Source of the DNA: Candidatus Moraniibacteriota bacterium
GTDB lineage: Bacteria; Patescibacteriota; Minisyncoccia; Moranbacterales; UBA1568
Assembly (NCBI GenBank): GCA_052035095.1
Contig: JBPOHW010000007.1
Location: forward strand, 1,705-65,704
DNA: 64,000 nucleotides
Reading direction: 5' to 3'
Below, piece by piece: positions 2,402 to 60,906 of the stretch; the stretch's first letter is position 1; each line of letters starts with the position of its first letter. The notes beneath the pieces were generated by a model that saw only the letters and a list, made by a program, of their open reading frames with translations, had not been told where the DNA came from and made no database searches. The translations under genes and the position numbers were made by a program.

Positions 2402-2424
2402 GAAACTCAAAGAACATTTCCCCT

Positions 2425-5855: not shown

Positions 5856-5929
5856 GACCGCAGAAAATAATTTTTCGAAAGTTTGCTCCGATAGAGAGGA
5901 GCATGTGAGAAAAATTGTTTTCTGCGGTC
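5856..5929 (+). repeat. Repeat family 2, copy A: hairpin with a 21-bp AT-rich stem (one G.U on the plus strand) and a 32-nt conserved loop
   Basis: gaccgcagaaaataatttttc [gaaagtttgctccgatagagaggagcatgtga] gaaaaattgttttctgcggtc, followed by gaggcaac. Near-identical to 53575..53649 (shared loop boxes AGTTTGCTCCGA and GAGGAGCATGTGAG). Confidence 0.8.
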
Positions 5930-6202
5930 GAGGCAACTCTCATAGGACTTCCTCACTTTGATGCAGTTCGAGGAAAAACCGAGCACCGGAACGAGGTGTA
6001 TGAGACATACTCCGAGTGAGGAGCGCAGGTTTTGACGAAGAAATGCGCAAAGTGAGGAAAGCCTATCTCAATAAAACAAAGCCATGTATATCCACACAGA
6101 AAAAAGAAATCCTTTACGCGCAACACAAATAGTATACACCAAAAAAAGAACGACCGCTGAAAAAGCGATCGTTCCACTCCGCCTCCAACATCGCGCTCGC
6201 GT

Positions 6203-11941: not shown

Positions 11942-12113
11942 TTTCAAAACTTCCGCCTGCGACAAAGAGAAAGAAATTAACGGAGGGGCGGGCAGGCCTG
12001 CGAAAACCACAAATGAAAGCTTCTTTGGGAGGTTATTTCTCTCCAGGACACACAATCTCACCTACCAAGCCCCGGAGCATTTCTTGAACGTGTCACAGGC
12101 GAAAGCTTTGAAA
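11942..12113. repeat. Repeat family 1, copy 2: conserved core closed by a 23-bp inverted repeat with 3 mismatches
   Basis: Flanks tttcaaaacttccgcctgcgaca / tgtcacaggcgaaagctttgaaa. All three mismatches are C.A on the plus strand and would be G.U on the minus-strand transcript. Confidence 0.85.
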
Positions 12114-13602: not shown

Positions 13603-13788
13603 CAGGACTTCCACATTTGTCAAACCTGCCTGCCGGTAGGCAGGGGGAGAGAAATCAACGGAGGGGCGGGCAGACTTACAAAAAACGCGAGAGAAAGCTT
13701 CTTTGGGAGGTTATTTACATCCATAACACAAAAACTCACCTACCAAGCCCCGGAGCATTTCTCGAACGTGACAAATGTGGAAGTCCTG
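13603..13788. repeat. Repeat family 1, copy 3: conserved core closed by a 20-bp perfect inverted repeat; carries an extra GC-rich palindrome (13625..13644)
   Basis: Flanks caggacttccacatttgtca / tgacaaatgtggaagtcctg. Internal cctgcctgccggtaggcagg hairpin sits immediately 5' of the core. Confidence 0.85.
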
Positions 13789-18814: not shown

Positions 18815-19739
18815 GGGAAATGCCCTCCTCATTCACAAAAGAATTCACATAAATTGCCGCGCACGCGAGATCGTCGAGCGGCCCATTGCCTGTCTTTTGC
18901 CAGGTCTTGGCCTGCCGCATCACGCGACGCGTCACAAACTGACCAGCCATCTGCTTGAATGCCAAGAGGCACGAAACCGCATCCTTCCAGTCCACGCCAT
19001 CTACTTGCATCACGCCATCAGAGAAGACAGCAACACACCGAATGTCTCCGCGAATAAATTTTTCCCGATCGATCGGAATCACAACTCCATCCATCACGTC
19101 GCGAAAAACATGCACGATCGGCTCTTGCTGTTGAAACTCCCCACTCGCTGAAACATGCCATACTTGATGAATCGGACGTTCTACCAAGATATTCCCTCCA
19201 TGAAACTCTTGAAGAAACTGTGCAACTCCCTCTTGTCCATAGGACGGATAGAGCGGCGCACCAACCTCCATTCCATCAGCGCCTTTCCCTTTCCAATCGA
19301 ACCGATGCACCTCCATCGTCCCGTCCGTATATACAATAGCCGCAACGCCATCACCCTGTACACAAACAACTCCAGTATACGGCGTGAGAATAATCGTAAG
19401 GCACGTCGCCACCAAATCATTCGTTCGCAGACCGAGAGTCTCCCGAGCTGTTGCAAAATGAATCTGTTGACGCATGTGAAGATCAGTCGGAACGATCTGC
19501 CAATCCGGTTGTTCAATAACAAGACGGCTCTTCAAAATCACCGAGGTCGTCGAACGCGCGACAACTCGCGCGCCCACGTCAGTCTCTCCGCCCGTTGAAC
19601 ACCCATCAGCAACAACCGCTACCGCTACCGGATCCGATACTCCCGAAAAAGCATAATCCTGGCACGGCTTTCCGGCCGTGAGATGATCATGCCCGATACA
19701 GAAGTAATGGTCGGTTTCAAACTGAATAACTGTACTCAT
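18807..19739 (-). CDS. PP2C-family Ser/Thr phosphatase (TerY-P triad phosphatase)
   Basis: Trimmed to ATG at 19739 (SD GGAG at -7). Asp-rich metal-binding motifs (VADGCSTGG..., VQGDGVAAIV, VFSDGVMQVDG) are consistent with the PP2C fold. Confidence 0.55.
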   Translation of the reverse strand: MSTVIQFETDHYFCIGHDHLTAGKPCQDYAFSGVSDPVAVAVVADGCSTGGETDVGARVVARSTTSVILKSRLVIEQPDWQIVPTDLHMRQQIHFATARETLGLRTNDLVATCLTIILTPYTGVVCVQGDGVAAIVYTDGTMEVHRFDWKGKGADGMEVGAPLYPSYGQEGVAQFLQEFHGGNILVERPIHQVWHVSASGEFQQQEPIVHVFRDVMDGVVIPIDREKFIRGDIRCVAVFSDGVMQVDGVDWKDAVSCLLAFKQMAGQFVTRRVMRQAKTWQKTGNGPLDDLACAAIYVNSFVNEEGISHG

Positions 19740-19845
19740 TAGTTCACACTCCACATCACAAAATCACAAAGAGAGAAAACGGCGAACGGGTTGTGGCCCG
19801 CCCGCCGTGTTATTTAACCTACACCTTTTCGACAGTCGATGACTT

Positions 19846-24468: not shown

Positions 24469-26205
24469 CTAAAGCGCCGGCTGTTCCGGTGACGAAGAAG
24501 TGGAGGGAGGCGCGCTCACAGAAACCGGTTCAGGAGAAGAGTTAACCTCAGGCGCCACCACCTCTATCGTCTTATTCTTTGTCTCCTCTCCAAACCACGC
24601 CTGCCCCTCGCGAAGCATACGCCACTGAAATTCGTACTTCCCCGGCTTCTCGGGGGCGGTCACCGTGAAGCTCAGGGTGATCTTTTTCTTTGGCTCGACG
24701 GTATTCCCGGGAAAAATAAAGACTCGCCCACCCCACGTGGCATTGTCCTGCGGATTTTGAGATCCCAATCGATATCCCTTCTCATCCGACCACACGGTTG
24801 TTCCGGTGTTCTTCATCGTGACGGATACGTCGTATTTTTGACCGGCAATCATTCGTTCCGGCACCTCTTGCTCGTCAAAGTTCGCATCGTCTCGTTCTTC
24901 TTTCTTCCCGCCTTCCGAAATAGAGTCATCAGAATCGAGTGGCACGCCCCGGAGCGAAACGATGTTTTCCGTCCCCTCTCCGGAAATCGCCGACTGTCGC
25001 AAGAGTCCATTCATCACATCTTCATCTTTGCACGAGTAGCGATTGTCCGGGGAATAGAAACTTTTCTTGGCGCCATAACACCCATCATTCTTATCGTAGA
25101 GCGTCGCCAAAAACGGAAAGAGGAATCCGGTTTTTCCCTCCGCCGTATTGAATTTTTCATGAAGTTTCCGGAGCGCTTTCGCGCGATCCTCCCGATCCAT
25201 CTTGGCAAAAACCGCCATATCATCGCCCTTGATACCGCTCCAATCAAGGTGAAGCAGCACCATATTCGCGTGTTCGGAATACTTTTCGTGCCAGAGAAGC
25301 GCCCAACACCATCCCTCGTATCGCGACGCGCACGGTTTTTCCTCAATATCGCCATCGCGCTTGATACCGACACCGCCCTCGATATAGTCAAAAAGTTGAA
25401 GATACTTCTTACTCGTAATCGTATTGGTCTGCGCGCCGATCGCGATTTTCATCCGCCGCTCCGACGCGTAGCGACGCATATCGGCGAGAATATCAGCCGC
25501 TTCCGTTCGATCGGCATCCTGAAACGCGATTTGTCCAAAGAGAAAACTTCGCACCCCCATATCCATCGCCTTTCGCGTCACATCTCGCACATACGCCCGG
25601 TAGTCGTCGCTTTCAAAAGACGCCTTGCAGGTGTTCTTCCCCCAGAAACCGGCGCTTTCCGGCCGGCACATATCGGAGAATTTCAAGACGCGATTTTCGA
25701 GCGACGAGTAATACTCTGCTTCCGTATTGAGCGCCTCGGAAATAAACATACCGTAGACGACATTCGGCTTGGTAACGAGTTGTTGTACGCGGCGAGCGAG
25801 CTCGAAATCCGGAGGATTGAGCCATGACTCGACCGCGCGATGAAGATACAGGCACTCGGAGCGATTGATAAGTTCAACTGACGCCTTTGTATCACCGCCA
25901 TAGCCGGAGAGGAGCCCATCGGCGACACAGCCGCGCCGACGCATCACCTCGAGAAGCCCGGTCGGACGCTCGACGCTCGCTCCGGACTCGGACTCGATAT
26001 CAAGAGACACCAGCCAGATGAGACCTATAATGATACCCGAAACAAAAGCGAGAAGCAGTGTCCCCTTCCATGTCTTCACCTTGATCCGCTTCATGGAAAT
26101 GTAAGTGCGCCCCCACCAACTATGCACCTCTCGGGCGACCATATCGATTTCCCGCACCCGCGGTTCTCGGTCTTCATCGGTAAATTTTGGCACTTGGTCC
26201 ATCAT
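24469..26205 (-). CDS. Membrane-anchored hypothetical protein with C-terminal NBR1-like Ig-fold domain and Ser/Pro-rich tail
   Basis: 578 aa. TM near the N-terminus (LLLAFVSGIIIGLIWLV). C-terminal segment YDVSVTMKNTGTTVWSDEKGYRLGSQNP...GKYEFQWRMLREGQAWFGE resembles the bacterial N_BRCA1_IG-type domain. Confidence 0.5.
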   Translation of the reverse strand: MMDQVPKFTDEDREPRVREIDMVAREVHSWWGRTYISMKRIKVKTWKGTLLLAFVSGIIIGLIWLVSLDIESESGASVERPTGLLEVMRRRGCVADGLLSGYGGDTKASVELINRSECLYLHRAVESWLNPPDFELARRVQQLVTKPNVVYGMFISEALNTEAEYYSSLENRVLKFSDMCRPESAGFWGKNTCKASFESDDYRAYVRDVTRKAMDMGVRSFLFGQIAFQDADRTEAADILADMRRYASERRMKIAIGAQTNTITSKKYLQLFDYIEGGVGIKRDGDIEEKPCASRYEGWCWALLWHEKYSEHANMVLLHLDWSGIKGDDMAVFAKMDREDRAKALRKLHEKFNTAEGKTGFLFPFLATLYDKNDGCYGAKKSFYSPDNRYSCKDEDVMNGLLRQSAISGEGTENIVSLRGVPLDSDDSISEGGKKEERDDANFDEQEVPERMIAGQKYDVSVTMKNTGTTVWSDEKGYRLGSQNPQDNATWGGRVFIFPGNTVEPKKKITLSFTVTAPEKPGKYEFQWRMLREGQAWFGEETKNKTIEVVAPEVNSSPEPVSVSAPPSTSSSPEQPAL

Positions 26206-35559: not shown

Positions 35560-37080
35560 TTACTGGTTAATTTCGTTTTCTTTTACTTCATTCTCTGTTC
35601 CCATTTTCTCATTCTTCGCTTCTTCTCCGCCTGTTTCGTTCTCAATTCCCGATTCCTGATTCTCCTCTATCTCTCCTCCATTCTCCATCCCCAATTCTTG
35701 ATCGCCCGTTGTTTGTTGTTCGTTGTCAGTTGTCAGTGGTTCATTGTTCCCCGTTTCCTGCTCATTGTTCATTGTTTCCTGCTCCTTGCTTTTCCTCGTT
35801 CCACTTCCGGCGATATCGATGCGAAGTCCCGTCAACTTGGACGCGAGTCGCACGTTTTGCCCCTTTCGCCCGATCGCCAAGGAAAGCTGGTCTTCCGGCA
35901 CGTGAACGAGCGCGCTCCTGGTTTCTTCGTGGAGTTCCACCTTGCTCACTTTGGCGGGGGAAAGCGCCGCCTTGATAAATTTGTACGCGTCGTCGCTCCA
36001 TTCGATAATGTCGATTTTTTCCCCGCCCAATTCGTCAATGATCGCCTGCACGCGCGTCCCCTTCTGCCCCACGCACGAGCCAATAGGATCAACACCTTCT
36101 TCGGCGGTAAAGACGGCAATCTTGGTGCGCGAGCCCGCTTCACGTGCAATCGCCTTGATCTCCACGACGCCCGAGAAAATTTCCGGCACCTCAAGCGTAA
36201 ACAAATGTCGCACCATCTCGGCATGCGCGCGCGACAACGTGATACCGGGACCCTTGGCGTCCGCCTCGACCCGAAGTATATACACCTTGATCCGCTGTCC
36301 GATACGGTAATTCTCGCCTTCCATTTGTTCCGACGGAAAGAGCGCGCCCACGGATTTGCCGAGGTCGACAAAGACGATCCGCCCGTCGATACGCTGGATG
36401 ATACCGTTCACGATCGTGCCTTCTTTACTCTTGTATTCGGCAAACATACTCTCGCGCTCCGCCTCGCGAATGCGCTGGATAATCACTTGTTTCGCCGTTT
36501 GCGCGGCGACGCGCCCGAATTCCTGCTCCATGGGAAGCGAAAGCTCGATCGTCTCACCAATCTCCGCATCCACCTTCACTAAGCGAGCCTCCTCGAGCGT
36601 CATATCGCGCTCGGCATTAAATCGCGGCAATCGCTCCTCATCACCCTCATCCTCAGTAGAAAGCTCCGCCAATGTTTCAGTCTTCAGATTTTTTTTCTCA
36701 TCATGCGCGTCCTCACGCTTCGCGGGAGTCGTTTCGACTTCTTCCGGCGCTTCCTCGACAAATTCGCGCGTCGTCTCGTCCACCACCTCTTTGAGGAGGA
36801 AGTATTTCGCTGACTTCGTCACCTTGTCAAACTCAGCGCGAATCACCTGCCCGCGCTTCCCATAGTCCTTCTTGTACGCCGCGGCAAGCGCCGCCTCGAC
36901 GACTTCCATCACTTTTTCCTCGGAAATACCCTTTTCCTCAGCAAGCTGCAGCACAGCACTCCCAAACTCGCCCAGCCGAATCGACCCTGATTGCCCGGGT
37001 TCTTTTTTGCCGCCTTCATCCTCATCTTCACCCTCCTCGCGCTCGATATCCTCATCAAGCAGTTTCTTCTTTCGTGCCAT
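35560..37080 (-). CDS. nusA: Transcription termination/antitermination factor NusA with acidic/Gln-Asn-rich C-terminal tail
   Basis: Trimmed to ATG at 37080 ([13 protein letters not shown]). S1 and KH1/KH2 domains ([19 protein letters not shown]; [26 protein letters not shown]). Low-complexity E/Q/N/T tail. Confidence 0.85.
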
Positions 37081-37304
37081 AATAAAAATAGAATTTAAGA
37101 ATTTAGAATATGGAATAAAGAATGTGGAATAAGGGGAGTCAGACAAGGAAAATGCCCCAGATATGCCTTTGATTCACCATTCTTCATTCGCTTTTCGTCC
37201 TTCCATTCATTAAAAAAGGCTCGCTCGCGCGAACCGGACCGCTCCCACCCAAAAACTACCCAGAATATAGCACCAAAGAAGAAGCGTGTCAAATGACGAC
37301 CGTG

Positions 37305-38426: not shown

Positions 38427-38830
38427 ATATGGCTATTATACAGCGTTCTATCAAAAAGTCAAGACTTTTCGATATTTGACTAAAAAATAGTCATTTTTCA
38501 TATTTTGCACCTCCATAGAGCCATTTTCTATATGACCGCCTGCGGGAATTTTCTCACTTTCCTGGGGTTCCTGATAGTCCTGTGCAGAAAAGCATACTTT
38601 GCGTATCACTGTGATACGAGAATAATGCTACAATGATACGAAAACACACAAACACCTTCTCGTATTCCCCCTGTTTCTTTCAATCGCCATTGACACTTCC
38701 TCCAAAAAATGCTACCGTCAAAGACCACCCCAAACCCGTTCTTCCCCCGCCACACGGCGCGGAAATGAGGGGAACAGGAGGTGGTAAACCAGCAGTTGCC
38801 TTAACAATTTATAACATTAAGGAGTCAAAA

Positions 38831-39553
38831 ATGAAGATTTTTGATCTTGCTGAATCCGTTCTCAATATGCCTGGCTTAATGGCATGGTGGAGAACTCGAA
38901 ACATGGGAATGGGAGGAGCACCGCAGAATGCCGGGCAAGGAAAGCCGGATTCCGGCGCAAAATCAAGCATCCTCGGCCTTGGACAAGCAGATGAGGCTAT
39001 TGCCCTTCATGCAGTTGTAAAAGCGCTCACTGATAAAGGCTTAGTCACCGCCAAACAGCGAGCCGCTTTCATTCGAATGGTAACGACACGGTTGTCGCTT
39101 GCCGAATGTACCATCCTGGAGAGAACGCTCGGTTTAGATGAGCAAAAACGGACGTTCATCGAAACCGAGCACGGAACCGACGCCAAAGGAAGGCCCAAGA
39201 AAACCGAAAGAAGTCACGATATCGTTATGAATCATCGCGGACTGGAAACGGTAGTTGGCATCTGTAAACTGGCAGAATCAGACGAGGAAAGCGCCCTGCT
39301 TCTCCTGAAAAAGCTTGGAGCAACCCGAACAACTGGCGATGTCTGGAAAGATCAACTAACGGAAGGGCTCGCGTTTCTAAAGAAACATGGAATTACCCCG
39401 GAAGTTGCCTTGAGCTTCATGAATGGAAGTCAAGAAACCAAAACGGTTCTCGAAGCAGAAAAGGAGAAAACGCGAACATTTCTTTACACGGCACTTGGCG
39501 TAATAGGTCTCCTGTTCGCGCTCATTGCTATTGCCATTGTTGTCCAAAACTAA
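38831..39553 (+). CDS. Hypothetical protein with C-terminal TM anchor
   Basis: ATG at 38831 preceded by AAGGAG at -8. 240 aa. C-terminal TM (LYTALGVIGLLFALIAIAIVV). Confidence 0.55.
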   Translation: MKIFDLAESVLNMPGLMAWWRTRNMGMGGAPQNAGQGKPDSGAKSSILGLGQADEAIALHAVVKALTDKGLVTAKQRAAFIRMVTTRLSLAECTILERTLGLDEQKRTFIETEHGTDAKGRPKKTERSHDIVMNHRGLETVVGICKLAESDEESALLLLKKLGATRTTGDVWKDQLTEGLAFLKKHGITPEVALSFMNGSQETKTVLEAEKEKTRTFLYTALGVIGLLFALIAIAIVVQN

Positions 39554-39572
39554 CCCAAGAGGAATCCATACC

Positions 39573-40709
39573 ATGTGGGACCAACTGAATACTGAATCAG
39601 AGAAGATAAAGCGCTTCTTCTGGCTTTTTCTTCTCGGTCTCCTTGCTATACATGCGGGAGCAATTTTGCTTGTCCTGGCGAGATTGCAAAATCTCATCTT
39701 CATTCTCGCCATTCTTTCCGCTTTCTTTATTGTGGCGCAAGTTGGTCGCATAAAGATATGGCTTACCACCGTCAGCGCCGGAGTACTCTTTGGACTCCTT
39801 CCAATCGCTCAAACAGCCGTAAGTGCGGAAAAATTCTCGCTTCTCGCATGGAAAGCCATCATGCATACCGCGCTTGGCACCAGCCTCACGCTTCTCTTGA
39901 TGGCTGAAATTCCCTTCAGGGGAGATGCTTCTCTCGCACTCGCCTTCGATACCGTACTCATGGTGCTTGCCCTTGTTTCCATGACATATATAGAAGTGGA
40001 CACAAAGTGGTATCCGACCATAGTTCGGTCACTTGCCGTACTCATTATCGCCATCATCCTGATGGAGGTGACGCTCGGCATAGCCTACCCGGAATTGAAC
40101 AAGCCCGACCGGTGGTGGAAATTCCTCGAGTTCGCAAAAGATCATTGGATTATCTTTGCGATTCTCATTGGAATTCCGCTCTTCCTCTGGAAAAAGGTGT
40201 CAATTCCAACGATTCCCATCAAGGCGATCATAGGTCTCGCTATCCTCTTCTTTGGCATTTCGATGATGTTCCAGGGTCCTCGTGATTGGCTCCTCGACAA
40301 AGTAAACCGGTCCGAAATTCCCACCGCCATCACCGGCACGGAGACGGTTCGGTCCGTTCTCGTCGAGAAGTTCGACGGATTCGACATCTGTGACTTGAAG
40401 CCTGAAACTTCATACACATTTGTTGAGGTTCGAACAGAATACAGCGACAAGACAACCTACCGAATAAGGAACAAGACCAATGGAGAAATCGTATCCACGA
40501 AGGTTACAGGGACAATAACGCAAGACGCAAGCAAGCATCCCTACCGGAAAGCCGACTACGACTTCGGGATTCTCGTAAATGGCGTCCCCCCAGGGAGACG
40601 GGTGGAAACAAATTCCACCGGATGCTTGCGAGGGAGTTTCAATACGCCCCTCACACAATATTTCGAGATGGAGCACTCTACAGGAATGGGGATCCATCTT
40701 AGAAATTAA
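39573..40709 (+). CDS. Polytopic membrane protein with C-terminal soluble domain
   Basis: ATG at 39573 preceded by AGAGGA. About 8 TM helices, then a roughly 130-aa C-terminal domain. Confidence 0.55.
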   Translation: MWDQLNTESEKIKRFFWLFLLGLLAIHAGAILLVLARLQNLIFILAILSAFFIVAQVGRIKIWLTTVSAGVLFGLLPIAQTAVSAEKFSLLAWKAIMHTALGTSLTLLLMAEIPFRGDASLALAFDTVLMVLALVSMTYIEVDTKWYPTIVRSLAVLIIAIILMEVTLGIAYPELNKPDRWWKFLEFAKDHWIIFAILIGIPLFLWKKVSIPTIPIKAIIGLAILFFGISMMFQGPRDWLLDKVNRSEIPTAITGTETVRSVLVEKFDGFDICDLKPETSYTFVEVRTEYSDKTTYRIRNKTNGEIVSTKVTGTITQDASKHPYRKADYDFGILVNGVPPGRRVETNSTGCLRGSFNTPLTQYFEMEHSTGMGIHLRN

Positions 40710-40777
40710 CGAAAACGAAACAAGCAGATCAGAAGATACTGATCTGCTTTTCATTTACTCAAAAAACAAGGCAAGGA

Positions 40778-41707
40778 TCACGTCGTCGCTGGCGCGAAAA
40801 ACTCCGCAATTTGTCGAACGATGACGAGCGACGCGAGCGCGACCACGATACCGAGGAGTGCAAAAGTGACAATCTTCTTCGCCACCCCGATCCGATTCAT
40901 ATCCCCTGCCGCGCCGAGGAACATAATGCCCCCGATAACGAGGAAAATAATCGCGAGAATCCCTACGATTCCAAGAAGGAAATTGAGGACCGAGAGAAGG
41001 ATATCCGCGGCGCTCTTTGCACCCGAGACCTCCGGCGGAACCGTGCCGCCCCAGCCCAAGACCGTCGCGATTTCCTTGAGGAAGGTCGGCGCCAAAATCC
41101 CGATCGCGAGCCCGATGAGGGCCGCCGTGATCGCGAGCTTCGCCGCCGTCACCTGCGACTGTCGCCCGCCGGACGTAATGTACAAGACCGCTCCAATCAC
41201 GATAAAGACGAGCGAAAGCACGACAATGACACCCTGCAAAGCATACAACAACGCTGTCAAAACTTCTTGTACCGTATCATATTTCAAGGGATTGGGAAGC
41301 GTTATGCTCACCGACGAGCCGGATCCGGTTGTTGTCCCTCCACCACCCGTACCCCTTGGGGGACAATAATTTGGTTTCGTTGGATCCGTACATATAGATT
41401 TGCATCCTGTCTGTGTCGTATCATCATCCGCAGTACAAGTTGTCTTACAATAACTCGCATTGCACGTGGAGGAAGAACTGCTTGTTTCGCAGCAAATATA
41501 CCCTTCCGAACTACTGCAATTATCAAACGTTCCCGATTTAATAACTCCAGGAGAGGGGCAGGTTTCTTGGCATACGCATGTTTTTCCGCTACTGCATGAT
41601 GCCTGACATGTCGCCGCTTTTGCCCCTTCCGGTGCCACTGCAAACGCCCCCAACACCAGCACCCCCAACACGGCCGCTACCCTCCCAAATTGTGCCATTG
41701 TTTCCAT
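40778..41707 (-). CDS. Cys-rich secreted protein fused to two tandem TrbC/VirB2-like pilin modules
   Basis: Signal peptide (METMAQFGRVAAVLGVLVLGAFAVAPEGAKA). Roughly 110-aa Cys/Ser/Thr-rich region (CQASCSSGKTCVCQETC...), Gly-rich linker, then two pilin-like hydrophobic hairpin modules (…LYITSGG… and …MFLGAAGDMNRIGVAKK…). Confidence 0.65.
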   Translation of the reverse strand: METMAQFGRVAAVLGVLVLGAFAVAPEGAKAATCQASCSSGKTCVCQETCPSPGVIKSGTFDNCSSSEGYICCETSSSSSTCNASYCKTTCTADDDTTQTGCKSICTDPTKPNYCPPRGTGGGGTTTGSGSSVSITLPNPLKYDTVQEVLTALLYALQGVIVVLSLVFIVIGAVLYITSGGRQSQVTAAKLAITAALIGLAIGILAPTFLKEIATVLGWGGTVPPEVSGAKSAADILLSVLNFLLGIVGILAIIFLVIGGIMFLGAAGDMNRIGVAKKIVTFALLGIVVALASLVIVRQIAEFFAPATT

Positions 41708-41723
41708 AATGAGTAGTGAGTAG

Positions 41724-41741
41724 ATAGTAGCGAGTAGATAG
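41724..41741. repeat. Left 18-bp terminal inverted repeat (ATAGTAGCGAGTAGATAG) of the four-helix-bundle cassette; embedded in AGTAGNN heptamer tandem repeats
   Basis: Exact reverse complement at 42229..42246. Region 41711..41741 reads gagtagtgagtagatagtagcgagtagatag. A second arm at 41774..41793 forms a long hairpin with 41719..41738. Confidence 0.8.
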
Positions 41742-41802
41742 AAAATAAAATGTTTTCTACCTACCAAATACTGTCTACTCGTTGCTATCTACTGATAAAT
41801 AC

Positions 41803-42180
41803 CTAAATATTATTCCTGACAGACTTCATTAGGCCGGAGAGAATTTTACTTACCTGTATCGTTTCCTCAGCAAGGGCGTCAAAAATATTTCTTTCAAGAA
41901 ATCCGATATCTCGTGCAATAAGCAGTTGGTTTTGAAGTTCAAAAATAGATCCTCTGGAAATAGCGTAAAATTGAAGTTTTTCTTTGGAAGAGCTCCTGCC
42001 AAATCCCTCTGCAATGTTGGAAGTAATGGAAATAGCACACCGACGTATCTGATTCGTAAGAGAAAAAATTTCCGCCCTCGGAAAAGACTCAGTTGCCCGA
42101 TAGACTGCAAGCACCAATTTGTGCCCTTTCTGCCACACTACCAAATCCGTAAAAGACTGTATTTTTGATATATCGCCCAT
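41803..42180 (-). CDS. Four-helix-bundle protein of the 'S23 ribosomal / rRNA intervening-sequence protein' family (PF05635-like)
   Basis: 125 aa. MGDISKIQSFTDLVVWQKGHKLVLAVYRATESFPRAEIFSLTNQIRRCAISITSNIAEGFGR... Local base composition is more AT-rich than the flanking pilin genes (by eye). Confidence 0.65.
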   Translation of the reverse strand: MGDISKIQSFTDLVVWQKGHKLVLAVYRATESFPRAEIFSLTNQIRRCAISITSNIAEGFGRSSSKEKLQFYAISRGSIFELQNQLLIARDIGFLERNIFDALAEETIQVSKILSGLMKSVRNNI

Positions 42181-42228
42181 ACAACCAAATACTGAAACAC
42201 CGAATGTTCTCTTGCTAGATACTCCCTA

Positions 42229-42246
42229 CTATCTACTCGCTACTAT
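42229..42246. repeat. Right 18-bp terminal inverted repeat (CTATCTACTCGCTACTAT) of the four-helix-bundle cassette
   Basis: Reverse complement of 41724..41741. A 10-bp direct repeat CCAAATACTG (41764..41773 and 42185..42194) flanks the ORF just inside the IRs. Confidence 0.8.
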
Positions 42247-42248
42247 TC

Positions 42249-43091
42249 TCACCCTCCCCACGCCGTCCCGCGCAACAAAGCATCGATCGCGATAATAATC
42301 ACGAGCCCGGCGAGCGCAACAATCACGCCCACGATGGAAAATTTCATATTCCGCTTCGCGGTCTCGATCATATTCATATTCCCCGCCGCCGCCAAGTACT
42401 GAATGCCCGAAATCACAAACGCGATAATCGCGAGGAATCCGAAGAGATAGAGCATCCACTTCATAAGATTGGTGACGATAAGCGCCACCGACGTTTCGGA
42501 GAGCCCCGTATTGAGCGGGAAACACACCCCCGCGTATTCCTTGAACTTCGCCGGATCGCACTTCACCGCCGTCGTCCCCGACCCGGTAGTACCACCCGTC
42601 TTGCAAAACTTCTTATTTGTCGCTTGTGAAGCGCATTGCGACGCACTGCACGTCGTATCCTCAGTCTCCCCCGTCACGCAAGCCGCCTTACAACCCCCAC
42701 CGGTACAGGATGAGGAAGAAAGGGTTTTACAACACACCAATTTATTATCTAAAGCTCTGCAATAACCATTGTCAGTAGAAACGGTAGTTTTTGGAGATAC
42801 ACAACCGGACATACTCTCACACGAACACGTCCCACCCGAACCGCAATTGCTGGTACAAGTGTTTCCGGAAGCAGTGACACAACACACTTGACCCAAACTG
42901 GATTCACAGTGATCTGAATCTGGACCAGATATTCCGGAAGAACACGTAGCACTCGCGGGAATACAGGTTCCGCTGCTCCCATTGTACGTACATGTCTGAG
43001 CAAAGACATCTCTGCCAAAAAACAAAGCCCCTGCTACAATGAAGCAAGAAAAAACAAAACTCAAAAACGAAATTCTCTTCATAAGAAACAT
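42249..43091 (-). CDS. Cys-rich secreted protein fused to one C-terminal TrbC/VirB2-like pilin module
   Basis: Trimmed to ATG at 43091 (MFLMKRISFLSFVFSCFIVAGALFFGRDVFA signal peptide); TGATG overlap with the upstream pilin gene. Roughly 150-aa Cys-rich region, then …GIQYLAAAGNMNMIETAKRNMKFSIVGVIVALAGLVII…. Confidence 0.65.
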   Translation of the reverse strand: MFLMKRISFLSFVFSCFIVAGALFFGRDVFAQTCTYNGSSGTCIPASATCSSGISGPDSDHCESSLGQVCCVTASGNTCTSNCGSGGTCSCESMSGCVSPKTTVSTDNGYCRALDNKLVCCKTLSSSSCTGGGCKAACVTGETEDTTCSASQCASQATNKKFCKTGGTTGSGTTAVKCDPAKFKEYAGVCFPLNTGLSETSVALIVTNLMKWMLYLFGFLAIIAFVISGIQYLAAAGNMNMIETAKRNMKFSIVGVIVALAGLVIIIAIDALLRGTAWGG

Positions 43092-43465
43092 CAAAAATAC
43101 GAATCGGCGCTCAACCACACATCGACTGCCTGAACGATCACGTACCCCATCAGCGCGACAATCACCCCGACGATAGACCACTTCATCGCTTCTTTGGCCG
43201 TTTTGATCTGACCGTCATTTCCGGCGGCCGTAAGATAGAGGATGCCCGAAATCACAAAGCCGATAATCGCGATGAAGCCGAGAAGTCCAAGGATCCAATC
43301 CATCGTACTGCCCGCGATATCAATAATAGGCGCAACTGGCAATCCCGACTGCATCGGCCCCGTAAGCGCCGGGTTCTCCCCCGTCTGCGCAAGCGCGCCA
43401 AGTGGCAGAAGCGCCATTCCCCCAGCTATTCCCCTCCGAACCCGCGAAACTATTGTGTGTTTCAT
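43091..43465 (-). CDS. TrbC/VirB2-like small pilin-family membrane protein
   Basis: 124 aa. Signal peptide, then two hydrophobic helices separated by LYLTAAGNDGQIKTAKEAMKWS. Paralogous to 43555..43926 and 44105..44485. Confidence 0.7.
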   Translation of the reverse strand: MKHTIVSRVRRGIAGGMALLPLGALAQTGENPALTGPMQSGLPVAPIIDIAGSTMDWILGLLGFIAIIGFVISGILYLTAAGNDGQIKTAKEAMKWSIVGVIVALMGYVIVQAVDVWLSADSYF

Positions 43466-43554
43466 ACAATATATTTAAAATAAGCTTTTTTCACTTTAAC
43501 GAAGACCAGCCTACCGGCAGGCAGGAATGCGCGAAGTGAGAAAATCTTAAAAGA

Positions 43555-43926
43555 TCAAAATGTTATTTCTCCCCCAAGCCACAAATCAACTGCTTGTATA
43601 ACCACGTACCCAACAAGCGCGACGATCACCCCGACGATAGACCATGTCATGGCGGTTTTCGCCGTTTTGATCTGACTGTCATTGCCTGCCGCCGTGAGAT
43701 AGAGGATGCCGGATATGATAAAACCGATAACGGCAAGAAACCCGACCAAGCTCAACATCCAGAGCATAAGATTGGAAACGATGCTATCGACACCACTCGA
43801 AGGAAGTCCGGATTCGGTCTGGAGCGTGCCGGACTTCGGATCGGACCACTGCGCAAGCGCCGGATGCGCAAGAAAACTCCCCGCCCCCAAAAAGAACCCC
43901 CTTGAAAAAATCTTCACGAATTTCAT
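43555..43926 (-). CDS. TrbC/VirB2-like small pilin-family membrane protein
   Basis: 123 aa. …GFIISGILYLTAAGNDSQIKTAKTAMTWSIVGVIVALVGYVVIQAVDLWL…. Confidence 0.7.
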   Translation of the reverse strand: MKFVKIFSRGFFLGAGSFLAHPALAQWSDPKSGTLQTESGLPSSGVDSIVSNLMLWMLSLVGFLAVIGFIISGILYLTAAGNDSQIKTAKTAMTWSIVGVIVALVGYVVIQAVDLWLGGEITF

Positions 43927-44104
43927 ATATCAAATTGTACCACAAAAAAAGAAAATTCGAAAAAAAATTATTCCACACGAACCATAAAGAGAAAATATTT
44001 CCTGTCAAGCCCTCATTCTTCATTCACCATTCTCCATTCCTCCTCCAAAACCAAAACGCCCCCGAAAATCGGGAGCGCCTCGGCAAGAAATCTTCGAAGA
44101 ATTC

Positions 44105-44485
44105 CTATATATTCGTATTCGAACTCGCGTTGAGCCACGCATCCACCGCTTGTACGATGACATAGCCGACGAGCGCCACAATGACACCCATAATGGAATA
44201 CATCATCGCGGACTTCGCCGATTTGATCTGGTCTTCACGTCCCGCCGCCGTGAGATAGAGAATACCCGCGATCACAAAGCCGATAATCGCGATAAAGCCG
44301 AGAATGGCGAGGAGATAATTCATGGTCGTCCGAATGATCTCATAGATAGACGAGTCCGGCGTCCCGCCGCTTGCCGCGTTGTTGTCACCCACCGACCACT
44401 GCCCAAACGCCACCATCGGCACTGCCATAAAAGCAACCACCAACGCGAACGCGCCGATATTTTTGAAAATAAGCGATTGTTTCAT
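44105..44485 (-). CDS. TrbC/VirB2-like small pilin-family membrane protein
   Basis: Trimmed to ATG at 44485 with strong SD AGGAGGT. …GFVIAGILYLTAAGREDQIKSAKSAMMYSIMGVIVALVGYVIVQAVDAWL…. Confidence 0.7.
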   Translation of the reverse strand: MKQSLIFKNIGAFALVVAFMAVPMVAFGQWSVGDNNAASGGTPDSSIYEIIRTTMNYLLAILGFIAIIGFVIAGILYLTAAGREDQIKSAKSAMMYSIMGVIVALVGYVIVQAVDAWLNASSNTNI

Positions 44486-44546
44486 ATGTTCTCTCACCTC
44501 CTTTCTGAAAAGAATAACTGCCAACTCACAACCTCCAACAGGAAAA

Positions 44547-44903
44547 TTATTCAAAAAACTTTGCAATCGCCAGTACCAAGATGAAAGCTCCCAATCCCAC
44601 CGCGACGCCGATCACTCCCCACGTAAACGCCTTCTTGGCAAGCTCCAATCGCGCCGTGTTGCCACCCGCCGTAAAATAGAGTATCCCCGCAATTACGAAC
44701 GTAAGTATAACAAGAAATCCGAATATCTCCAACAAAAAGTCAAGCATCCGCAAAAACGCCTGTGCCAAAGTCGGCGCATCATCAATCACCCCGGCGGCGG
44801 AAACCTCAAACGTTCCCGCTCCACAAAGCAGAAATAACAAGAGTACGCACACCCCGAGAACCCGCGTAAAATTTTTTCTCGAAAAGATCATAGAAAATTC
44901 CAC
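44547..44903 (-). CDS. TrbC/VirB2-like small pilin-family membrane protein (divergent paralog)
   Basis: 118 aa. …LTFVIAGILYFTAGGNTARLELAKKAFTWGVIGVAVGLGAFILV…. Confidence 0.65.
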   Translation of the reverse strand: MEFSMIFSRKNFTRVLGVCVLLLFLLCGAGTFEVSAAGVIDDAPTLAQAFLRMLDFLLEIFGFLVILTFVIAGILYFTAGGNTARLELAKKAFTWGVIGVAVGLGAFILVLAIAKFFE

Positions 44904-44915
44904 AAAGTTCTTCTT

Positions 44916-45539
44916 TCACGAAATCCGTTCTTTGGTTTCAAGTGTAATTGCCGCCGTGCCAATATATTGGCTCACTTCTTGCGTAAGCGACTCCAAATAC
45001 CGTGGAAATTTTTTGGCGTACTCGGCGAACTTTTTCCGACCTATGGAGCGAAGATCCAATTCTTGTAAGCCCATATTCCCTTTCCCTCGCGCTACCATAT
45101 AGAGCATATCCAGAAGCGCCTTCTCCGGTTCGGCAATGTACATGCCATTTTCCAGCCGATACCCGAAAAAAAGATTTTCCTTCACCTGCCGAAATTCAAT
45201 CGCCGTACCGAAAATACTCATCCTCTTGGTTTGTTTGAGCGTTGCAAACGTCTCCGTCGCCGGCATTTGACTCAAAATTCCATACCGAGAAAGCGCGCTC
45301 TCAAAAGAGAGATAGGACGGGTAGTAGAGTTGATTGGCGATTTTCGGTACATCGATAAGTGCCGCGCTCGAGGCATACACGCCGCGTTTCAAACGAGTGA
45401 GCGCGCCCTTTTCCGTCAAGCGAGAAACCGCCACTTTCAAACTCGGTCGCGAAAGCGCGGTTATCTTCTCCAAATCGGCCACCGTAAAGTAGTCTCGATT
45501 CAATGTCTGCAATCTCTGCATGAAGTCAAAGGTGGTCAT
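44916..45539 (-). CDS. abiEi: AbiEi-family type IV antitoxin / transcriptional regulator (wHTH N-terminal domain)
   Basis: Trimmed to ATG at 45539 (ATGA overlap with the abiEii stop). MTTFDFMQRLQTLNRDYFTVADLEKITALSRPSLKVAVSRLTEKGALTRLKRGVYA is the typical AbiEi N-terminal fold. Confidence 0.6.
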   Translation of the reverse strand: MTTFDFMQRLQTLNRDYFTVADLEKITALSRPSLKVAVSRLTEKGALTRLKRGVYASSAALIDVPKIANQLYYPSYLSFESALSRYGILSQMPATETFATLKQTKRMSIFGTAIEFRQVKENLFFGYRLENGMYIAEPEKALLDMLYMVARGKGNMGLQELDLRSIGRKKFAEYAKKFPRYLESLTQEVSQYIGTAAITLETKERIS

Positions 45540-46216
45540 AGACTTTCTTTCTTCAGCCAACGGTCGAGGAGTTGCCACTTCCCTTGCGGCAAGAGCCGGT
45601 GCAAATCGCCGCGCACCTCATGTACCGAATACTTCCCAAAATTCATCTCGGGTGACTCGCCGCGCTGACTCCTGATAAACCACAAATCGAAAATATCACG
45701 AACACGAAGCGGATCGATACTCTCTTTTTCCCGTTCAATTTGCGCGATGGTCGCCACTTGCGCCAAAACCGTTACCGGAGTCACCTCGCTCGAAAGCTGT
45801 TTGAGAATATAATCCTCATTCTGTCGCCATTCTTTTTTTCGACGTGATATTTCCACCTTGATGCCAAGCGGACGCTCTAGCGTCGGATCGGTAATCACAA
45901 AACGAGCATAGAGCGTATAGTATTTCTGCAAAGCTTCATCAAGAGCAACATACGGTACGGACTTCGCCGTGTCATGGCACCACTCTTGAAACTTCGGAGC
46001 GGAAATATCGACGAGTTGCGTAAAATCCAAATCATCGGAGTATCGGTACGACCCATACGCAAGTCGAAGCGCCGTCCCTCCGCGAAAAACAAGATCCTTC
46101 CCGAAGTTGCTCTCAAAAATACGGCTCAAAAGAAGCATTTCATACTCTTCCCACACGATACGATCCACCGAGATTCCCAGCTGTTTCTGCTTTTCCAGTG
46201 CCAATTGTTTGTTCAT
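45536..46216 (-). CDS. abiEii: AbiEii/AbiGii-family nucleotidyltransferase toxin (DUF1814)
   Basis: FRGGTALRLAYGSYRYSDDLDF NTase motif. 226 aa. Lies upstream of abiEi, which reverses the canonical order. Confidence 0.65.
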   Translation of the reverse strand: MNKQLALEKQKQLGISVDRIVWEEYEMLLLSRIFESNFGKDLVFRGGTALRLAYGSYRYSDDLDFTQLVDISAPKFQEWCHDTAKSVPYVALDEALQKYYTLYARFVITDPTLERPLGIKVEISRRKKEWRQNEDYILKQLSSEVTPVTVLAQVATIAQIEREKESIDPLRVRDIFDLWFIRSQRGESPEMNFGKYSVHEVRGDLHRLLPQGKWQLLDRWLKKESL

Positions 46217-46414
46217 ATAGTTATAAGATAGTTAACAAATTCGTTAACTTACCTATAAGTATACGCAACTCCCTCTTTCCTGTCAATCCCATAATTTTCG
46301 CGGCATCAAATTCAGTTTTGTATGCAAAACCAGACAAAACTGAATTTGAATTTCTGTCATTCCTTTCCAAATACCTGCAATTTTCTCAATCAGGAAGAGA
46401 GCACTTCACAACAC

Positions 46415-46942
46415 TTACTGCGGTATCACCCTCCCATTCGGACACGAGCTAAACCCGAAATTCACACCCGCGTATTCATCTCCCTCGATAGCGGAAACGG
46501 TTTCGTGAATATCAAGCGCGCAAGCATCTTGAGCCGAAACGCCCAACATTTCCAAGAGCTCCTTTTCGGCATTCACGCGAACATCAACGCTCGGAATCGA
46601 ATTAAAGGCGATAAAAAATTGACGGAAGGGATTGATATAGCTGATTGAATATTCGGGTTTTTCCGAGAGAATTCTATCTCCTTGAGGATTAATCGGCTCT
46701 TTTTTTACCAAGAAGTCCTTCGTAAGAACCTCTCCCGTTTTTCCTATTCCTTCAATAACGAAATATCCATTCGGATTTTTTTCCGGAAGTGGACGGGAAA
46801 AATCATTCGAGATATCCGGCGGCGCATTCAAGAGCTTCCAAACCTGAACAACAACAAAAAGAATAATAGCAATCAAAACAAGCGCCCCAACAGAGAGAAT
46901 GAGTTTCCTATTTTGAATAAGAAAATATTGTGATACAGGCAT
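46415..46942 (-). CDS. Hypothetical membrane-anchored protein
   Basis: Trimmed to ATG at 46942 (MPVSQYFLIQNRKLILSVGALVLIAIILFVVV). 175 aa. Confidence 0.5.
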   Translation of the reverse strand: MPVSQYFLIQNRKLILSVGALVLIAIILFVVVQVWKLLNAPPDISNDFSRPLPEKNPNGYFVIEGIGKTGEVLTKDFLVKKEPINPQGDRILSEKPEYSISYINPFRQFFIAFNSIPSVDVRVNAEKELLEMLGVSAQDACALDIHETVSAIEGDEYAGVNFGFSSCPNGRVIPQ

Positions 46943-46977
46943 AAGAATTTTTCTTAAAACAAAAATCAAATCCCTCA

Positions 46978-48516
46978 TCAGAGACCGCAGCGCTTCTTTG
47001 TAACCGGCCACGGTCCCCACCCGCTTTGTTTATATAAAGTGCACGCCGCTGAAATATTTTTTGCCGCGTCCATAGCCCGTTGCGAACACTCGGTATATTT
47101 GGCGCGATTTATTACTGAACATCCCCACCCACATACATAGGTAACTCCTTTGCTATTTGTACAACGCTTTTTTGCGCCACCATTATTCCCTGCACTTCCA
47201 TTTTCCAATGAAAATACATTCTGCCAACAACAATCACTCCCCAACATACACCCGTTGGCAATAATATTGAGCTGAAAAAGCCCGAATGAAAACCGGTCGC
47301 CACTCTCATTTTGACATCGATCCGTATTGCTCGCCGCCGCCGTATTTCCACCTGACTCGACATTACACACCTTCGAAGCTGCTTCCGCGTTCCATGAGCA
47401 CGCTTTCCCAAGGTTTTCTGTCGTACAATACCCCGAAGTGATCACCGAACACGATCCATTTCCTGGTCCTCCGCCACTTCCGCCGTCCCCTCCACCCCCA
47501 CCGCTCCCACCTGTACCACCTGTTCCGCCAGTTCCCGTATATTTCGTCTGCGTATCGCAACTATACGTAAACCACGATCCGTTCGTCTTGATAGAAAAAC
47601 TCGCCGTATCGCTCCCCAGCGTCCCGTCCGCCAAGACCATCAGAATCACATTGATCGCGACCCATCCGAGAAGAACAATCGCAAGCCCAACCAACGCCGC
47701 CCAAATACCCGATTTCGCAAGACCCGTCAATTGCGGCTTCCCGGTCGAAACAATATAGAGTATCCCCATCGCGACCAACACCGCAAAGGCGATATACGTC
47801 ATCACCATCAGGATCCAATTGGTAATATTTTGAATAAGGATCAACAGGTGACACAGCGTGCAAATTTTCGTCTCGTCATCCGAAGTGGCAGGGTTATCGC
47901 ACGATCGCCCGCACGGCACGATCCCGGGATTTTCAGATCCGGAACACGTGGTTGCCGTTCCGCCATCACCTCCTCCGCCGCCGGAAGGCGTATAACAACA
48001 CGCGACTCCGTTCGCGGCACACCCCGACGCCCCCGTAAGCGCCGTCCCCGACGAACACGTCGCGCTCGTCGAGCACGACCCCGTCTGCATCGTCCCACTT
48101 GCATCTTTGCCGGTACAGGGAGTACTGTTTGGAGCAGACTTACAGCACTTTCCCTTTGTTATAGTCAAAGAAGCACACTGCCCATCACTGCCGGAAACAG
48201 GAGTATCGCCACTTTCACACGCGCTTTTACATATTCCTTCCCCACCGGTACTACAGAAAAACGCCGTCGTATTTGGAACACAGCAGTCCCACAACCCAAC
48301 ACCACCCGCAGTACATGCTCCGGTCGAATCATCCCTCGAAAGCTCATTCGCGTTACATCCGGGAGTACTCGGGCGACATTCTCCAGAATAAGACTTCCCT
48401 GTAGAGGTATCGTTAAACGTGCAGCTTGCCGCAGAAACAGAAAAAGTGAACACAAAAAACATCAGAAGCATGTATACTCCCAGCAAAAAAGAAAAATATT
48501 TCTTCAAAAATATCAT
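46978..48516 (-). CDS. Large Cys-rich secreted protein with an internal TrbC/VirB2-like pilin module and a C-terminal Rpf/transglycosylase-like (lysozyme-fold) domain
   Basis: 512 aa. Signal peptide. Cys-rich and Gly-rich regions. Pilin module (ILMVMTYIAFAVLVAMGILYIVSTGKPQLTGLAKSGIWAALVGLAIVLL). C-terminal CNVESGGNTAAASNTDRCQNESGDRFSFGLFQLN resembles the Rpf / transglycosylase-like motif C-E-S-G-G-N...G-L-F/Q-Q. Confidence 0.65.
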   Translation of the reverse strand: MIFLKKYFSFLLGVYMLLMFFVFTFSVSAASCTFNDTSTGKSYSGECRPSTPGCNANELSRDDSTGACTAGGVGLWDCCVPNTTAFFCSTGGEGICKSACESGDTPVSGSDGQCASLTITKGKCCKSAPNSTPCTGKDASGTMQTGSCSTSATCSSGTALTGASGCAANGVACCYTPSGGGGGDGGTATTCSGSENPGIVPCGRSCDNPATSDDETKICTLCHLLILIQNITNWILMVMTYIAFAVLVAMGILYIVSTGKPQLTGLAKSGIWAALVGLAIVLLGWVAINVILMVLADGTLGSDTASFSIKTNGSWFTYSCDTQTKYTGTGGTGGTGGSGGGGGDGGSGGGPGNGSCSVITSGYCTTENLGKACSWNAEAASKVCNVESGGNTAAASNTDRCQNESGDRFSFGLFQLNIIANGCMLGSDCCWQNVFSLENGSAGNNGGAKKRCTNSKGVTYVCGWGCSVINRAKYTECSQRAMDAAKNISAACTLYKQSGWGPWPVTKKRCGL

Positions 48517-53456: not shown

Positions 53457-53574
53457 CATCCGACTTGAAACACACGAAACAAATACAAAACTCCGATACA
53501 TTCCGGAGTTTTGTTGGTATAATGTCACTATAGCTAACCTATATACTCTGAAAATTTCTACCATGCGCGCTGAA

Positions 53575-53649
53575 ACCGCGAAAAATAATTTTTCTCTAGT
53601 TTGCTCCGAGCCCAATGAGGAGCATGTGAGAAAAATTATTTTTCGCGGT
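53575..53649 (+). repeat. Repeat family 2, copy B: perfect 20-bp AT-rich stem hairpin with 35-nt conserved loop
   Basis: accgcgaaaaataatttttc [tctagtttgctccgagcccaatgaggagcatgtga] gaaaaattatttttcgcggt, then gaggcaac. Located between infB and cca. Confidence 0.8.
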
Positions 53650-53692
53650 CGAGGCAACGTTCAAAAGAGCAGAAATTGAACAAATTGAGAGT

Positions 53693-60721: not shown

Positions 60722-60906
60722 GAAATTCGCGTATTCGGCTAACCTGCCTGCCGGCAAGGCAGGGAGAAAGAAATTAACGAAGGGGCGAGCAAACGTACAA
60801 AAACCACAAACGAAAGCTTCTTTGGGAGGTTATTTCTATCCATAACATACAAACTCACCTACCAAGCCCCGGAGCATTTCTTGAACGTGCCGAATACGCG
60901 AATTTC
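60722..60906. repeat. Repeat family 1, copy 4: conserved core closed by an 18-bp perfect inverted repeat; carries GC-rich palindrome 60743..60763
   Basis: Flanks gaaattcgcgtattcggc / gccgaatacgcgaatttc. Internal cctgcctgccggcaaggcagg. Lies 75 nt upstream (minus-strand sense) of nrdA and just downstream of sodA. Confidence 0.85.

Follow-up and report, generated by a model that had tools for sequence, protein, structure and literature searches.

An array of seven T4SS_pilin-family paralogs, three of them fused to Cys-rich domains and one to a lysozyme-like domain, in a Moranbacteria chromosome

A search of 3,035 patescibacterial genomes with the Pfam families PF04956 and PF18895 has described arrays of 2-11 VirB2-like pilin genes, which are most abundant in Microgenomatia and Saccharimonadia and show a mean within-array identity of 25% (maximum 54%); of 1948 assemblies, 1135 have a pilin gene close to virB4 (Quinonero-Coronel et al. 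2025; PMC12102498). Arrays of this kind are widespread among Patescibacteria (PMC12102498, PMC10633639, PMC12857230). In Candidatus Southlakia epibionticum a pilin series within the type IV secretion system cluster (T4SS; SEML1_0006-0019 region) is essential, and structure-based annotation labels these paralogs VirB2-like pilins (Wang et al. 2023; PMC10633639). A 2025 review regards the patescibacterial systems as unique among monoderms in potentially making conjugative pili (PMC12857230). Here we describe a locus of this type in a window of 64,000 nucleotides from a Candidatus Moraniibacteriota bacterium (contig JBPOHW010000007.1, positions 1,705 to 65,704 of the forward strand). With seven PF18895-type genes in 7.7 kb, and with its closest relatives in Moranbacteria, the locus is an array under the published definition (PMC12102498). 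Like the published arrays it is chromosomal, lacks a relaxase context and has a paralog identity (~22-59% within the window) close to the reported figures. It is unlike them in having no adjoining virB4 within the window, in its lineage, the Moranbacteria, and in containing three members with six-Cys ectodomains, one lysozyme-like domain and one tandem double module. The array itself is of a known kind and adds nothing to the publications of 2023-2025; what is new are the domain fusions, the link of one array gene (G7) and its partner gene (X8) to virB4 clusters, and the strain-level turnover of the ectodomains. As far as their text is searchable, PMC12102498, PMC10633639 and PMC12857230 mention neither pilin fusions to Cys-rich or lysozyme-like domains nor strain-level hypervariability. 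On balance we think it probable that the array is a chromosomal satellite locus of a Moranbacteria T4SS, in which plain structural pilins are combined with decorated, host-facing variants.

The array consists of the following genes, where "module" denotes the conserved two-helix unit.

40778..41707, minus strand: G1, 309 aa, 14 Cys; signal peptide, Cys-rich ectodomain at aa 32-135 (nt 41303-41614) and two tandem modules at aa ~138-222 and ~226-308
42249..43091, minus strand: G2, 280 aa, 23 Cys; signal peptide, Cys-rich ectodomain at aa 32-176 (nt 42564-42998) and one module
43091..43465, minus strand: G3, 124 aa, no Cys; small pilin whose stop codon shares one base with the G2 start
43555..43926, minus strand: G4, 123 aa, no Cys; small pilin
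44105..44485, minus strand: G5, 126 aa, no Cys; small pilin with a strong AGGAGG ribosome-binding site
44547..44903, minus strand: G6, 118 aa, 2 Cys; signal peptide and one module, the most divergent small pilin
46978..48516, minus strand: G7, 512 aa, 38 Cys; signal peptide at aa 1-29 followed by the further domains described below

All seven genes share the minus strand, G7 being set apart from G6 by X8 and an inserted toxin-antitoxin pair. Hydropathy and sequence inspection show that every product opens with a hydrophobic signal sequence, at whose end stands an AxA-like site, and by hydropathy this is followed by two strongly hydrophobic helices, or by four in G1, which correspond to its two modules. 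The loop joining the helices has the form GILYLTAAGN..QIK.AK with variants, in which Gly, Ala-Lys and Gly are invariant in all 8 modules. PF18895 (T4SS_pilin; gathering score 26.6 bits) is the top Pfam family for each of the seven proteins: G1 (52.2 bits, in two stretches), G5 (39.2), G3 (37.8) and G4 (33.6) pass the cutoff, G2 (26.4) and G6 (25.4) miss it by about 1 bit or less, and G7 matches weakly at 16.4 bits. The three sub-threshold proteins are clear paralogs of the rest in blastp comparisons (E 1e-8 to 1e-27; the weakest pair, G6 versus G7, at 2e-4). Further, a locally built hidden Markov model (HMM) of the module singled out exactly these seven genes among all open reading frames (ORFs) of at least 50 aa in the window (E-values of 5e-27 and 8e-28 for the two modules of G1, 1e-28 for G6 and 6e-26 for G7), which argues that the array is not a product of chance. 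For the starts at 41707, 43091, 44485 and 48516, the orthologs use the same codon positions. A first-pass annotation, made by a model from the DNA sequence alone, had proposed seven co-directional genes at these positions, with two modules in G1, the signal peptide and two-helix architecture with the quoted loop motif, and membership in a T4SS pilin family; the ORFs, hydropathy, module alignment and PF18895 matches bear this out, as does the literature its remark that such arrays are known from bacteria of the candidate phyla radiation (PMC12102498, PMC10633639).

In an AlphaFold2 (AF2) model G5 consists of a signal helix and a hairpin of helices 47-79 and 84-123, and the module is predicted to be exported by Sec and to insert as a hairpin of two helices, its termini both lying outside and its short basic loop inside; the double module of G1 is consistent with this topology. 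The plain paralogs share with VirB2, TrbC and TraA pilins their small size, the signal peptide of the Sec type, the pair of hydrophobic helices joined by a short basic loop, and the predicted location of the termini outside; they are unlike them in that the mature proteins of the array are longer, at about 90-100 aa, and in that the organism is a monoderm. Type IV pilus pilins are marked by one hydrophobic helix, at the N-terminus, and by a class III signal peptide that is cleaved at a G/(F,M)TLxE motif. We rejected this assignment, as the array proteins have classical Sec signal peptides and two helices after cleavage, and match no Pfam family of type IV pilus pilins.

The largest member, G7, and its partner gene add three features to the locus.

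47980..48429, minus strand: hypervariable N-terminal ectodomain of G7, three six-Cys units
46981..47463, minus strand: lysozyme-like domain, probably of the SLT_3 family, at the C-terminus of G7 (aa 352-512), with invariant Glu387-Ser388 and a GLFQ(L/I)N motif
46415..47020, minus strand: X8, the G7 partner gene, 201 aa, bitopic with one transmembrane helix at aa 40-58 and a conserved C-terminal domain ending ..NYGLSFCPNG..

The three six-Cys units of G7 (aa 30-178) precede a conserved pre-membrane Cys motif, PCGRSCD..ICTLCH (aa 201-223), which leads into a PF18895-type two-helix module (aa ~217-300; helices 216-256 and 261-298 in the AF2 model), a short beta hairpin, a Gly-rich linker and the lysozyme-like domain. 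Across 37 G7 homologs this core (the Cys motif, the two helices and the short hairpin FSIKTNGSWFTYSCD) is highly conserved, and the domains at either end are swapped: the N-termini carry a varying number of six-Cys units or, alternatively, InlB-type B-repeats (PF18998), and the C-terminal domains are of at least two types between which hhalign finds no relationship. In the type present in G7, the Glu-Ser pair and GLFQxN are invariant across the family. G7 alone does not match PF18896 (SLT_3, "Lysozyme like domain"), and six of the eight aligned family members match it below the cutoff (best E 8.8e-6); a profile of this domain retrieves, at E 1e-26 to 1e-29, the proteins P0049, P0050 and P0052, which pass the PF18896 cutoff of 27 with 30.6, 36.8 and 28.0 bits, respectively, and several of the proteins retrieved are short PF18895 plus SLT_3-type fusions. 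The other type of C-terminal domain shows weak matches to SLT (PF01464). The C-terminal domain of G7 is lysozyme-like, with the putative catalytic Glu at the end of a helix that is followed by a beta hairpin. Searches of PDB sequences with the domain as a single sequence and as two profiles returned nothing significant, the only matches being chance ones to the Cys-rich RNase A, and a Foldseek comparison of the full-length G7 AF2 model against the PDB likewise gave nothing. The first-pass annotation had described three Cys-rich secreted domains; the Cys counts of G1, G2 and G7 (14, 23 and 38) agree, but in G7 the Cys-rich repeats occupy only the N-terminal ~190 aa, the C-terminal ~160 aa being the separate lysozyme-like domain.

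In comparison with VirB1, EtgA and the hydrolases of the Tn916 Orf14/CTn1-Orf17 type, the G7 domain has the same invariant Glu-Ser and GLxQ, and its short homologs sit in virB4 clusters. It is unlike these secretion-system lytic transglycosylases in that 1) it is fused to a pilin-type membrane hairpin rather than being soluble or lipid-anchored; 2) it is Cys-rich; 3) it appears to belong with Pfam SLT_3 (PF18896) and not SLT (PF01464); and 4) its orthologs carry two or more non-alignable versions. Being encoded within a T4SS cluster, which is a mark of VirB1-like enzymes, applies to the G7 homologs, with G7 itself lying in the proposed satellite locus.

Small two-helix membrane proteins adjoining a muralytic domain might also be taken for a phage-derived lysis cassette, composed of holin-like proteins and a lysozyme-like enzyme, and a very weak PHROG holin match of G5 (E 0.063) and the toxin-antitoxin pair inserted nearby would fit such an origin. 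This explanation is effectively refuted, as all seven proteins have cleavable Sec signal peptides, none of the PHROG matches reaches significance, a scan of viral contigs with G5 turned up no relative, synteny of the locus extends to several genomes, and its surroundings are housekeeping genes without phage genes among them. The window is ordinary chromosome that encodes NusA, IF2, trigger factor, pyrophosphatase, RNase Y, PBP1, DnaG and ThrRS, together with ribonucleotide reductase, the CCA-adding enzyme, a solute-binding protein and six tRNAs.

A connection to T4SS clusters emerges from the neighborhoods of the homologs of G7 and X8 in related genomes (loci numbered with the prefix L). X8 comes after the G7 homolog in L001 and L003/L004, and has no relative in a Pfam scan or in a comparison of its family profile with the PDB. 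In L006 and L007 the gene order is PrgI, TraC-like, VirB4, two small membrane proteins, a VirB6-sized protein of 870-1030 aa, a pilin-SLT_3 fusion and a protein of 169-179 aa, the last of which is a homolog of X8 (E 1e-11 to 1e-15); in L006, dnaA is some 10 kb away from the cluster. Pilin-SLT_3 fusions are found 4-6 kb downstream of virB4 in L006, L007, L014, L022, L023 and L027; in L088 the fusion is upstream of virB4. We then surveyed 80 Moranbacteria-type virB4 loci from species-representative genomes, and saw one or more module genes within 10 kb of virB4 in 33 of them and none in the other 47. The linked genes typically encode one or two module-plus-domain proteins of 280-370 aa, 4-6 kb downstream of virB4; a module-SLT_3 gene followed by X8 occurs in 5 of the 80 loci, and double-module proteins at two (L018 and L024). 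Given that homologs of both G7 and X8 reside inside virB4 clusters, G7-X8 is best regarded as a T4SS-cluster gene pair, which in this lineage sits at a second site together with an expanded pilin set.

The virB4 clusters of L006 and L007 encode further decorated pilins: a module protein of 329 aa whose C-terminal domain is of another kind and bears an "AHES" motif in L006 (8984-9973), and a 447-aa G7-like protein with six-Cys units, the CTLCH motif and yet another C-terminal domain in L007 (8604-9947). In L009-L011 (Moranbacteria GW2011) a stand-alone SLT_3 protein of 168 aa (10001-10507) comes after a 1053-aa protein and a small ORF, the latter of 132-143 aa depending on the gene call and on the opposite strand in L009. 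The 10 kb upstream of this SLT_3 gene contain no virB4, and rnpA/yidC are ~10 kb away, a layout that suggests that T4SS genes have been split in more than one way within Moranbacteria.

The explanation that we favor, that of a satellite T4SS locus, would work as follows. G3-G6 would be the plain subunits, and G1, G2 and G7, which carry additional extracellular domains on the same anchor, the decorated ones. A VirB4-type machine encoded elsewhere in the genome would pull the subunits out of the membrane to build a surface filament or cap, of which the small paralogs would form the shaft, and on which the decorated paralogs would display strain-variable disulfide-rich domains for contact with a host. 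The VirB1-like muralytic domain may cut peptidoglycan, either that of the cell's own wall during assembly or that of the host, and G7 probably works together with X8. Filament assembly under a VirB4 machine, display for host contact and a VirB1-type role of the SLT_3 domain are inferred, and the tip adhesins and the major/minor pilin system suggested in the first-pass annotation are likewise hypothetical.

Several results weigh against this explanation. There is no direct sequence or fold link to the solved VirB2/TraA pilins: 1) PF04956 (TrbC/VirB2) has no match at E<=1 to any of the seven or to any other protein of the window, and the "TrbC/VirB2-like" label of the first-pass annotation is left without direct support. 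2) A profile of the module matched no solved conjugative pilin among PDB sequences. 3) Foldseek comparison of the G5 AF2 model with the PDB gave no match at E<1 and no pilin among the top 50, its output being generic coiled-coil and helical-hairpin matches; the hairpin is a generic fold, too simple to discriminate. In the 64-kb window, which is part of a 157-kb contig, no ORF of at least 480 aa matches a VirB4, VirD4 or VirB6 family, as the earlier annotation had noted for the array's vicinity; VirB4 is ubiquitous in Moranbacteria, and none of the 120 best matches of a VirB4 search or of the 80 loci lies on this contig, on the L003/L004 contigs or on CP064974.1. Subunits with domains of ~100-190 aa at one terminus or at both, or with two modules fused in tandem, fit poorly into a tightly packed helical filament of the VirB2 type. 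Finally, the papers cited here report no patescibacterium in which a T4SS pilus was visualised.

The T4SS link of the array comes instead from gene neighborhood in relatives and from a sub-threshold match to the NCBIfam family NF045849 (Mbov_0395 family). This pilin-like conjugal transfer family of Mycoplasma integrative and conjugative elements appears, from sequence comparison, to be the nearest independent relative of the array proteins (G3 E 1e-8, G4 4e-7, G5 4e-6; best score 34.6 bits against a cutoff of 40). The likeness to G3-G5 spans nearly the whole 80-position profile, and with all scores below the curated cutoff it indicates a related family rather than membership. The Mbov_0395 family, too, belongs to the conjugation machinery of a monoderm, which agrees with the MPF-FATA (mating-pair formation class FATA) ancestry published for the patescibacterial T4SS. 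Only one relative, P0053, matches PF04956, at E 0.002 and below the cutoff (18.7 bits against 27.9).

In the main rival explanation the PF18895 module is only a two-helix anchor that is never polymerised, the large proteins being anchored adhesins or hydrolases and the small ones membrane-organising or scaffold proteins. The fusion of G7 at both termini, the tandem double module of G1, the lack of detectable similarity to solved pilins, the absence of any demonstrated pilus and the position of the array away from any T4SS ATPase in the window would all fit an anchor, as would the fact that many of the VirB4-linked relatives are module-plus-domain proteins rather than bare pilins. We nevertheless consider this possible but doubtful, since four small paralogs have no ectodomain to anchor and yet include the most conserved members (G3-G5, 95-100%), the family shows tight and recurrent linkage with virB4 clusters, and the S. 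epibionticum paralogs have been published as VirB2-like pilins (PMC10633639).

The nearest named relatives are Candidatus Moranbacteria/Moraniibacteriota and include the complete 1.11-Mb genome CP064974.1 (L002), in which the array lies at 882-904 kb. In L002, L003 and L004 there is a syntenic series of a solute-binding protein, a G7-like protein, a small bitopic protein (X8-like in L003/L004), five or six PF18895 genes and the NusA region; the last PF18895 gene of the array is a double-module gene of ~305 aa, the G1 orthologs in L002 and L003 measuring 304-311 aa. By blastp the orthology is one-to-one, with lengths conserved. The G2 ortholog of L003 is truncated in the JGI gene call, the full ORF encoding 304 aa with its own, different Cys-rich domain. 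Two further elements interrupt the array.

44916..46216, minus strand: AbiEi/AbiEii toxin-antitoxin pair (PF13338 and PF08843; AbiEii being the nucleotidyltransferase toxin), between X8 and G6
41803..42180, minus strand: 23S_rRNA_IVP gene (PF05635, E 9e-37), a four-helix bundle with a weak bAvd-like match, between G2 and G1

The AbiEi/AbiEii pair is absent at this position in L002-L004 and present in L001, and the 23S_rRNA_IVP gene is absent in L003, whose G2 and G1 orthologs have 215 nt between them. Both are insertions private to this strain and L001, and stand outside the pilin system.

L003, whose flanks are about 98% identical to those of the window at the nucleotide level, was used to compare amino acid identity and synonymous divergence (dS) across the locus.

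Most flanking genes: 98.7-100% aa, dS 0-0.08; IF2 and the CCA enzyme identical
NusA: 93% aa, dS 0.19
Modules of G1, G2 and G7: 96-100% aa, dS ~0.43, dN/dS below 0.06
Ectodomains of G1, G2 and G7 and the SLT_3 domain: 37-42% aa, dS saturated
X8: 32% aa, dS saturated
G5: 100% aa, dS 0.03
G3: 97.6% aa, dS 0.16
G4: 95% aa, dS 0.17
G6: 82% aa in global alignment (83% by blastp), dS 0.45

Within single proteins the break is sharp: G1 has modules at 100% and an ectodomain at 42%, G2 a module at 97% and an ectodomain at 37%, and in G7 the units R1-R2 are at 37%. The ectodomain-coding segments have no blastn match in L003. Judged by these rates, the membrane modules are under strong constraint while the exposed domains are replaced. 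Further, the high dS within the locus, set against the low dS of the flanks, shows the locus to be mosaic, its alleles being much older than the young background around them. IF2, the CCA enzyme and the AAA_14 gene are 99.5-100% identical (aa) to L003, and NusA (35560-37146) is noticeably more diverged, so that the genome background, too, is mosaic near the array. Downstream of G1, two membrane-protein genes on the plus strand (38633-40709), convergent with it, are variable in their own right: 38633-39553 has a 40%-identical homolog in L002, and the L003 position holds unrelated genes, for a Band_7 protein and for one of 238 aa.

The ectodomains themselves are built of units of ~40 residues of the form C-x(2-12)-C-x(2-9)-C-x(3-16)-C-x(2-9)-CC with six invariant Cys, a second type of six-Cys unit without the CC being present in G1 and G2. 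Outside the cysteines their sequence is barely conserved. The N-terminal domain of G7 has only 4 matches at E<=1e-3 among 1.84 billion representative proteins, all of them G7-family proteins or fragments, so that its wider distribution is not mappable by sequence. A profile of the six-Cys unit gave only sub-significant matches in the PDB (carboxypeptidase inhibitor chain 2k2z, E 0.17; Defensin-BvL, E 0.25), and the AF2 model of this region is only moderately confident. The resemblance to beta-defensin-like mini-domains, such as helianthamide and the tick carboxypeptidase inhibitor, is one of disulfide scaffold only, lies below significance and implies no functional parallel. The Cys spacing ending in CC may be that of the beta-defensin class.

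Hypervariable ectodomains on conserved modules between 98%-identical genomes, together with the elevated dS across the locus, would be expected of an antigenic or host-range variation system, in which paralogs and swapped ectodomains vary the surface of a single structure and one or few are expressed at a time. The cassette-like shuffling of end domains among the 37 G7 homologs is in keeping with this, as is the analogy to the VirB2 paralog arrays of Bartonella and Anaplasma drawn in PMC12102498. Against it, the orthologs are one-to-one, with order and length conserved across genomes, which fits distinct fixed roles better than interchangeable copies, and we found neither silent cassettes nor gene-conversion repeats beyond the module DNA itself (62-71% identity). 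Prompted by the bAvd-like match of the inserted gene we also considered a diversity-generating retroelement, and rejected it: there is no template/variable repeat pair, and no reverse transcriptase among the ORFs scanned. We regard such a system as quite unlikely to be the explanation in its own right; it is compatible with, rather than exclusive of, the satellite T4SS locus. An extension of the latter, which we hold to be unlikely in its full form, would make the PF18895 hairpin a polymerising scaffold with which a monoderm episymbiont could mount interchangeable warheads on a T4SS filament. Six-Cys domains, beta-defensin-like and specific to the strain, would recognise the host, and a lytic transglycosylase anchored by its pilin module would breach the host cell wall. 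The locus would then be the determinant of host range in Moranbacteria, whose diversity would be kept by recombination of old alleles (module dS of about 0.43 against 0-0.08 in the flanks).

The array may be closed by the following element.

40722..40749, no strand assigned: perfect 11-bp hairpin between the convergent G1 and 39525-40709, a possible bidirectional terminator

Overall, promoter and terminator-like sites in the window are not above the shuffled expectation. Elsewhere in the window, intergenic DNA or its vicinity contains four copies of an element of ~139 nt, all of one orientation (2249-2387, 11960-12098, 13638-13776 and 60757-60895), with a mean column identity of 84% and long invariant blocks such as CTCACCTACCAAGCCCCGGAGCATTTCT; no Rfam family reaches its gathering score on it, and it is possibly a lineage-specific small RNA, leader or miniature repeat. 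Of a second pair of repeats, ~100 nt long and with 83-87% identity, one copy is found around the gene start of 4684-5943 (5844-5947) and the other just upstream of the CCA-enzyme gene (53562-53668). Large ORFs with no or weak Pfam matches are found in 1291-5943, 17069-19754 and 24469-26205: 1291-3567 shows weak WxLIP_PGBD and Fn3-like matches, 24469-26205 has an N_BRCA1_IG immunoglobulin-like match above the cutoff, and in 17069-19754 a kinase-like ORF adjoins a PP2C phosphatase. They are likely to be further surface or signalling proteins.

The first-pass annotation had the array genes, and missed the lysozyme-like domain of G7, X8, the hypervariability of the ectodomains and the private AbiEi/AbiEii and 23S_rRNA_IVP insertions; its interpretation, right in outline, is partly supported. 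To our knowledge, no T4SS other than the patescibacterial one, with its pilin array, has been reported as essential to the cell that bears it. G7, in which a pilin-anchored lysozyme-like domain is accompanied by a conserved partner gene, is a candidate for the "missing" VirB1 function of this system. The paralogs divide into strongly conserved plain subunits and decorated ones that differ between almost identical strains, and this divide is the pattern expected of host-contact or host-range determinants.

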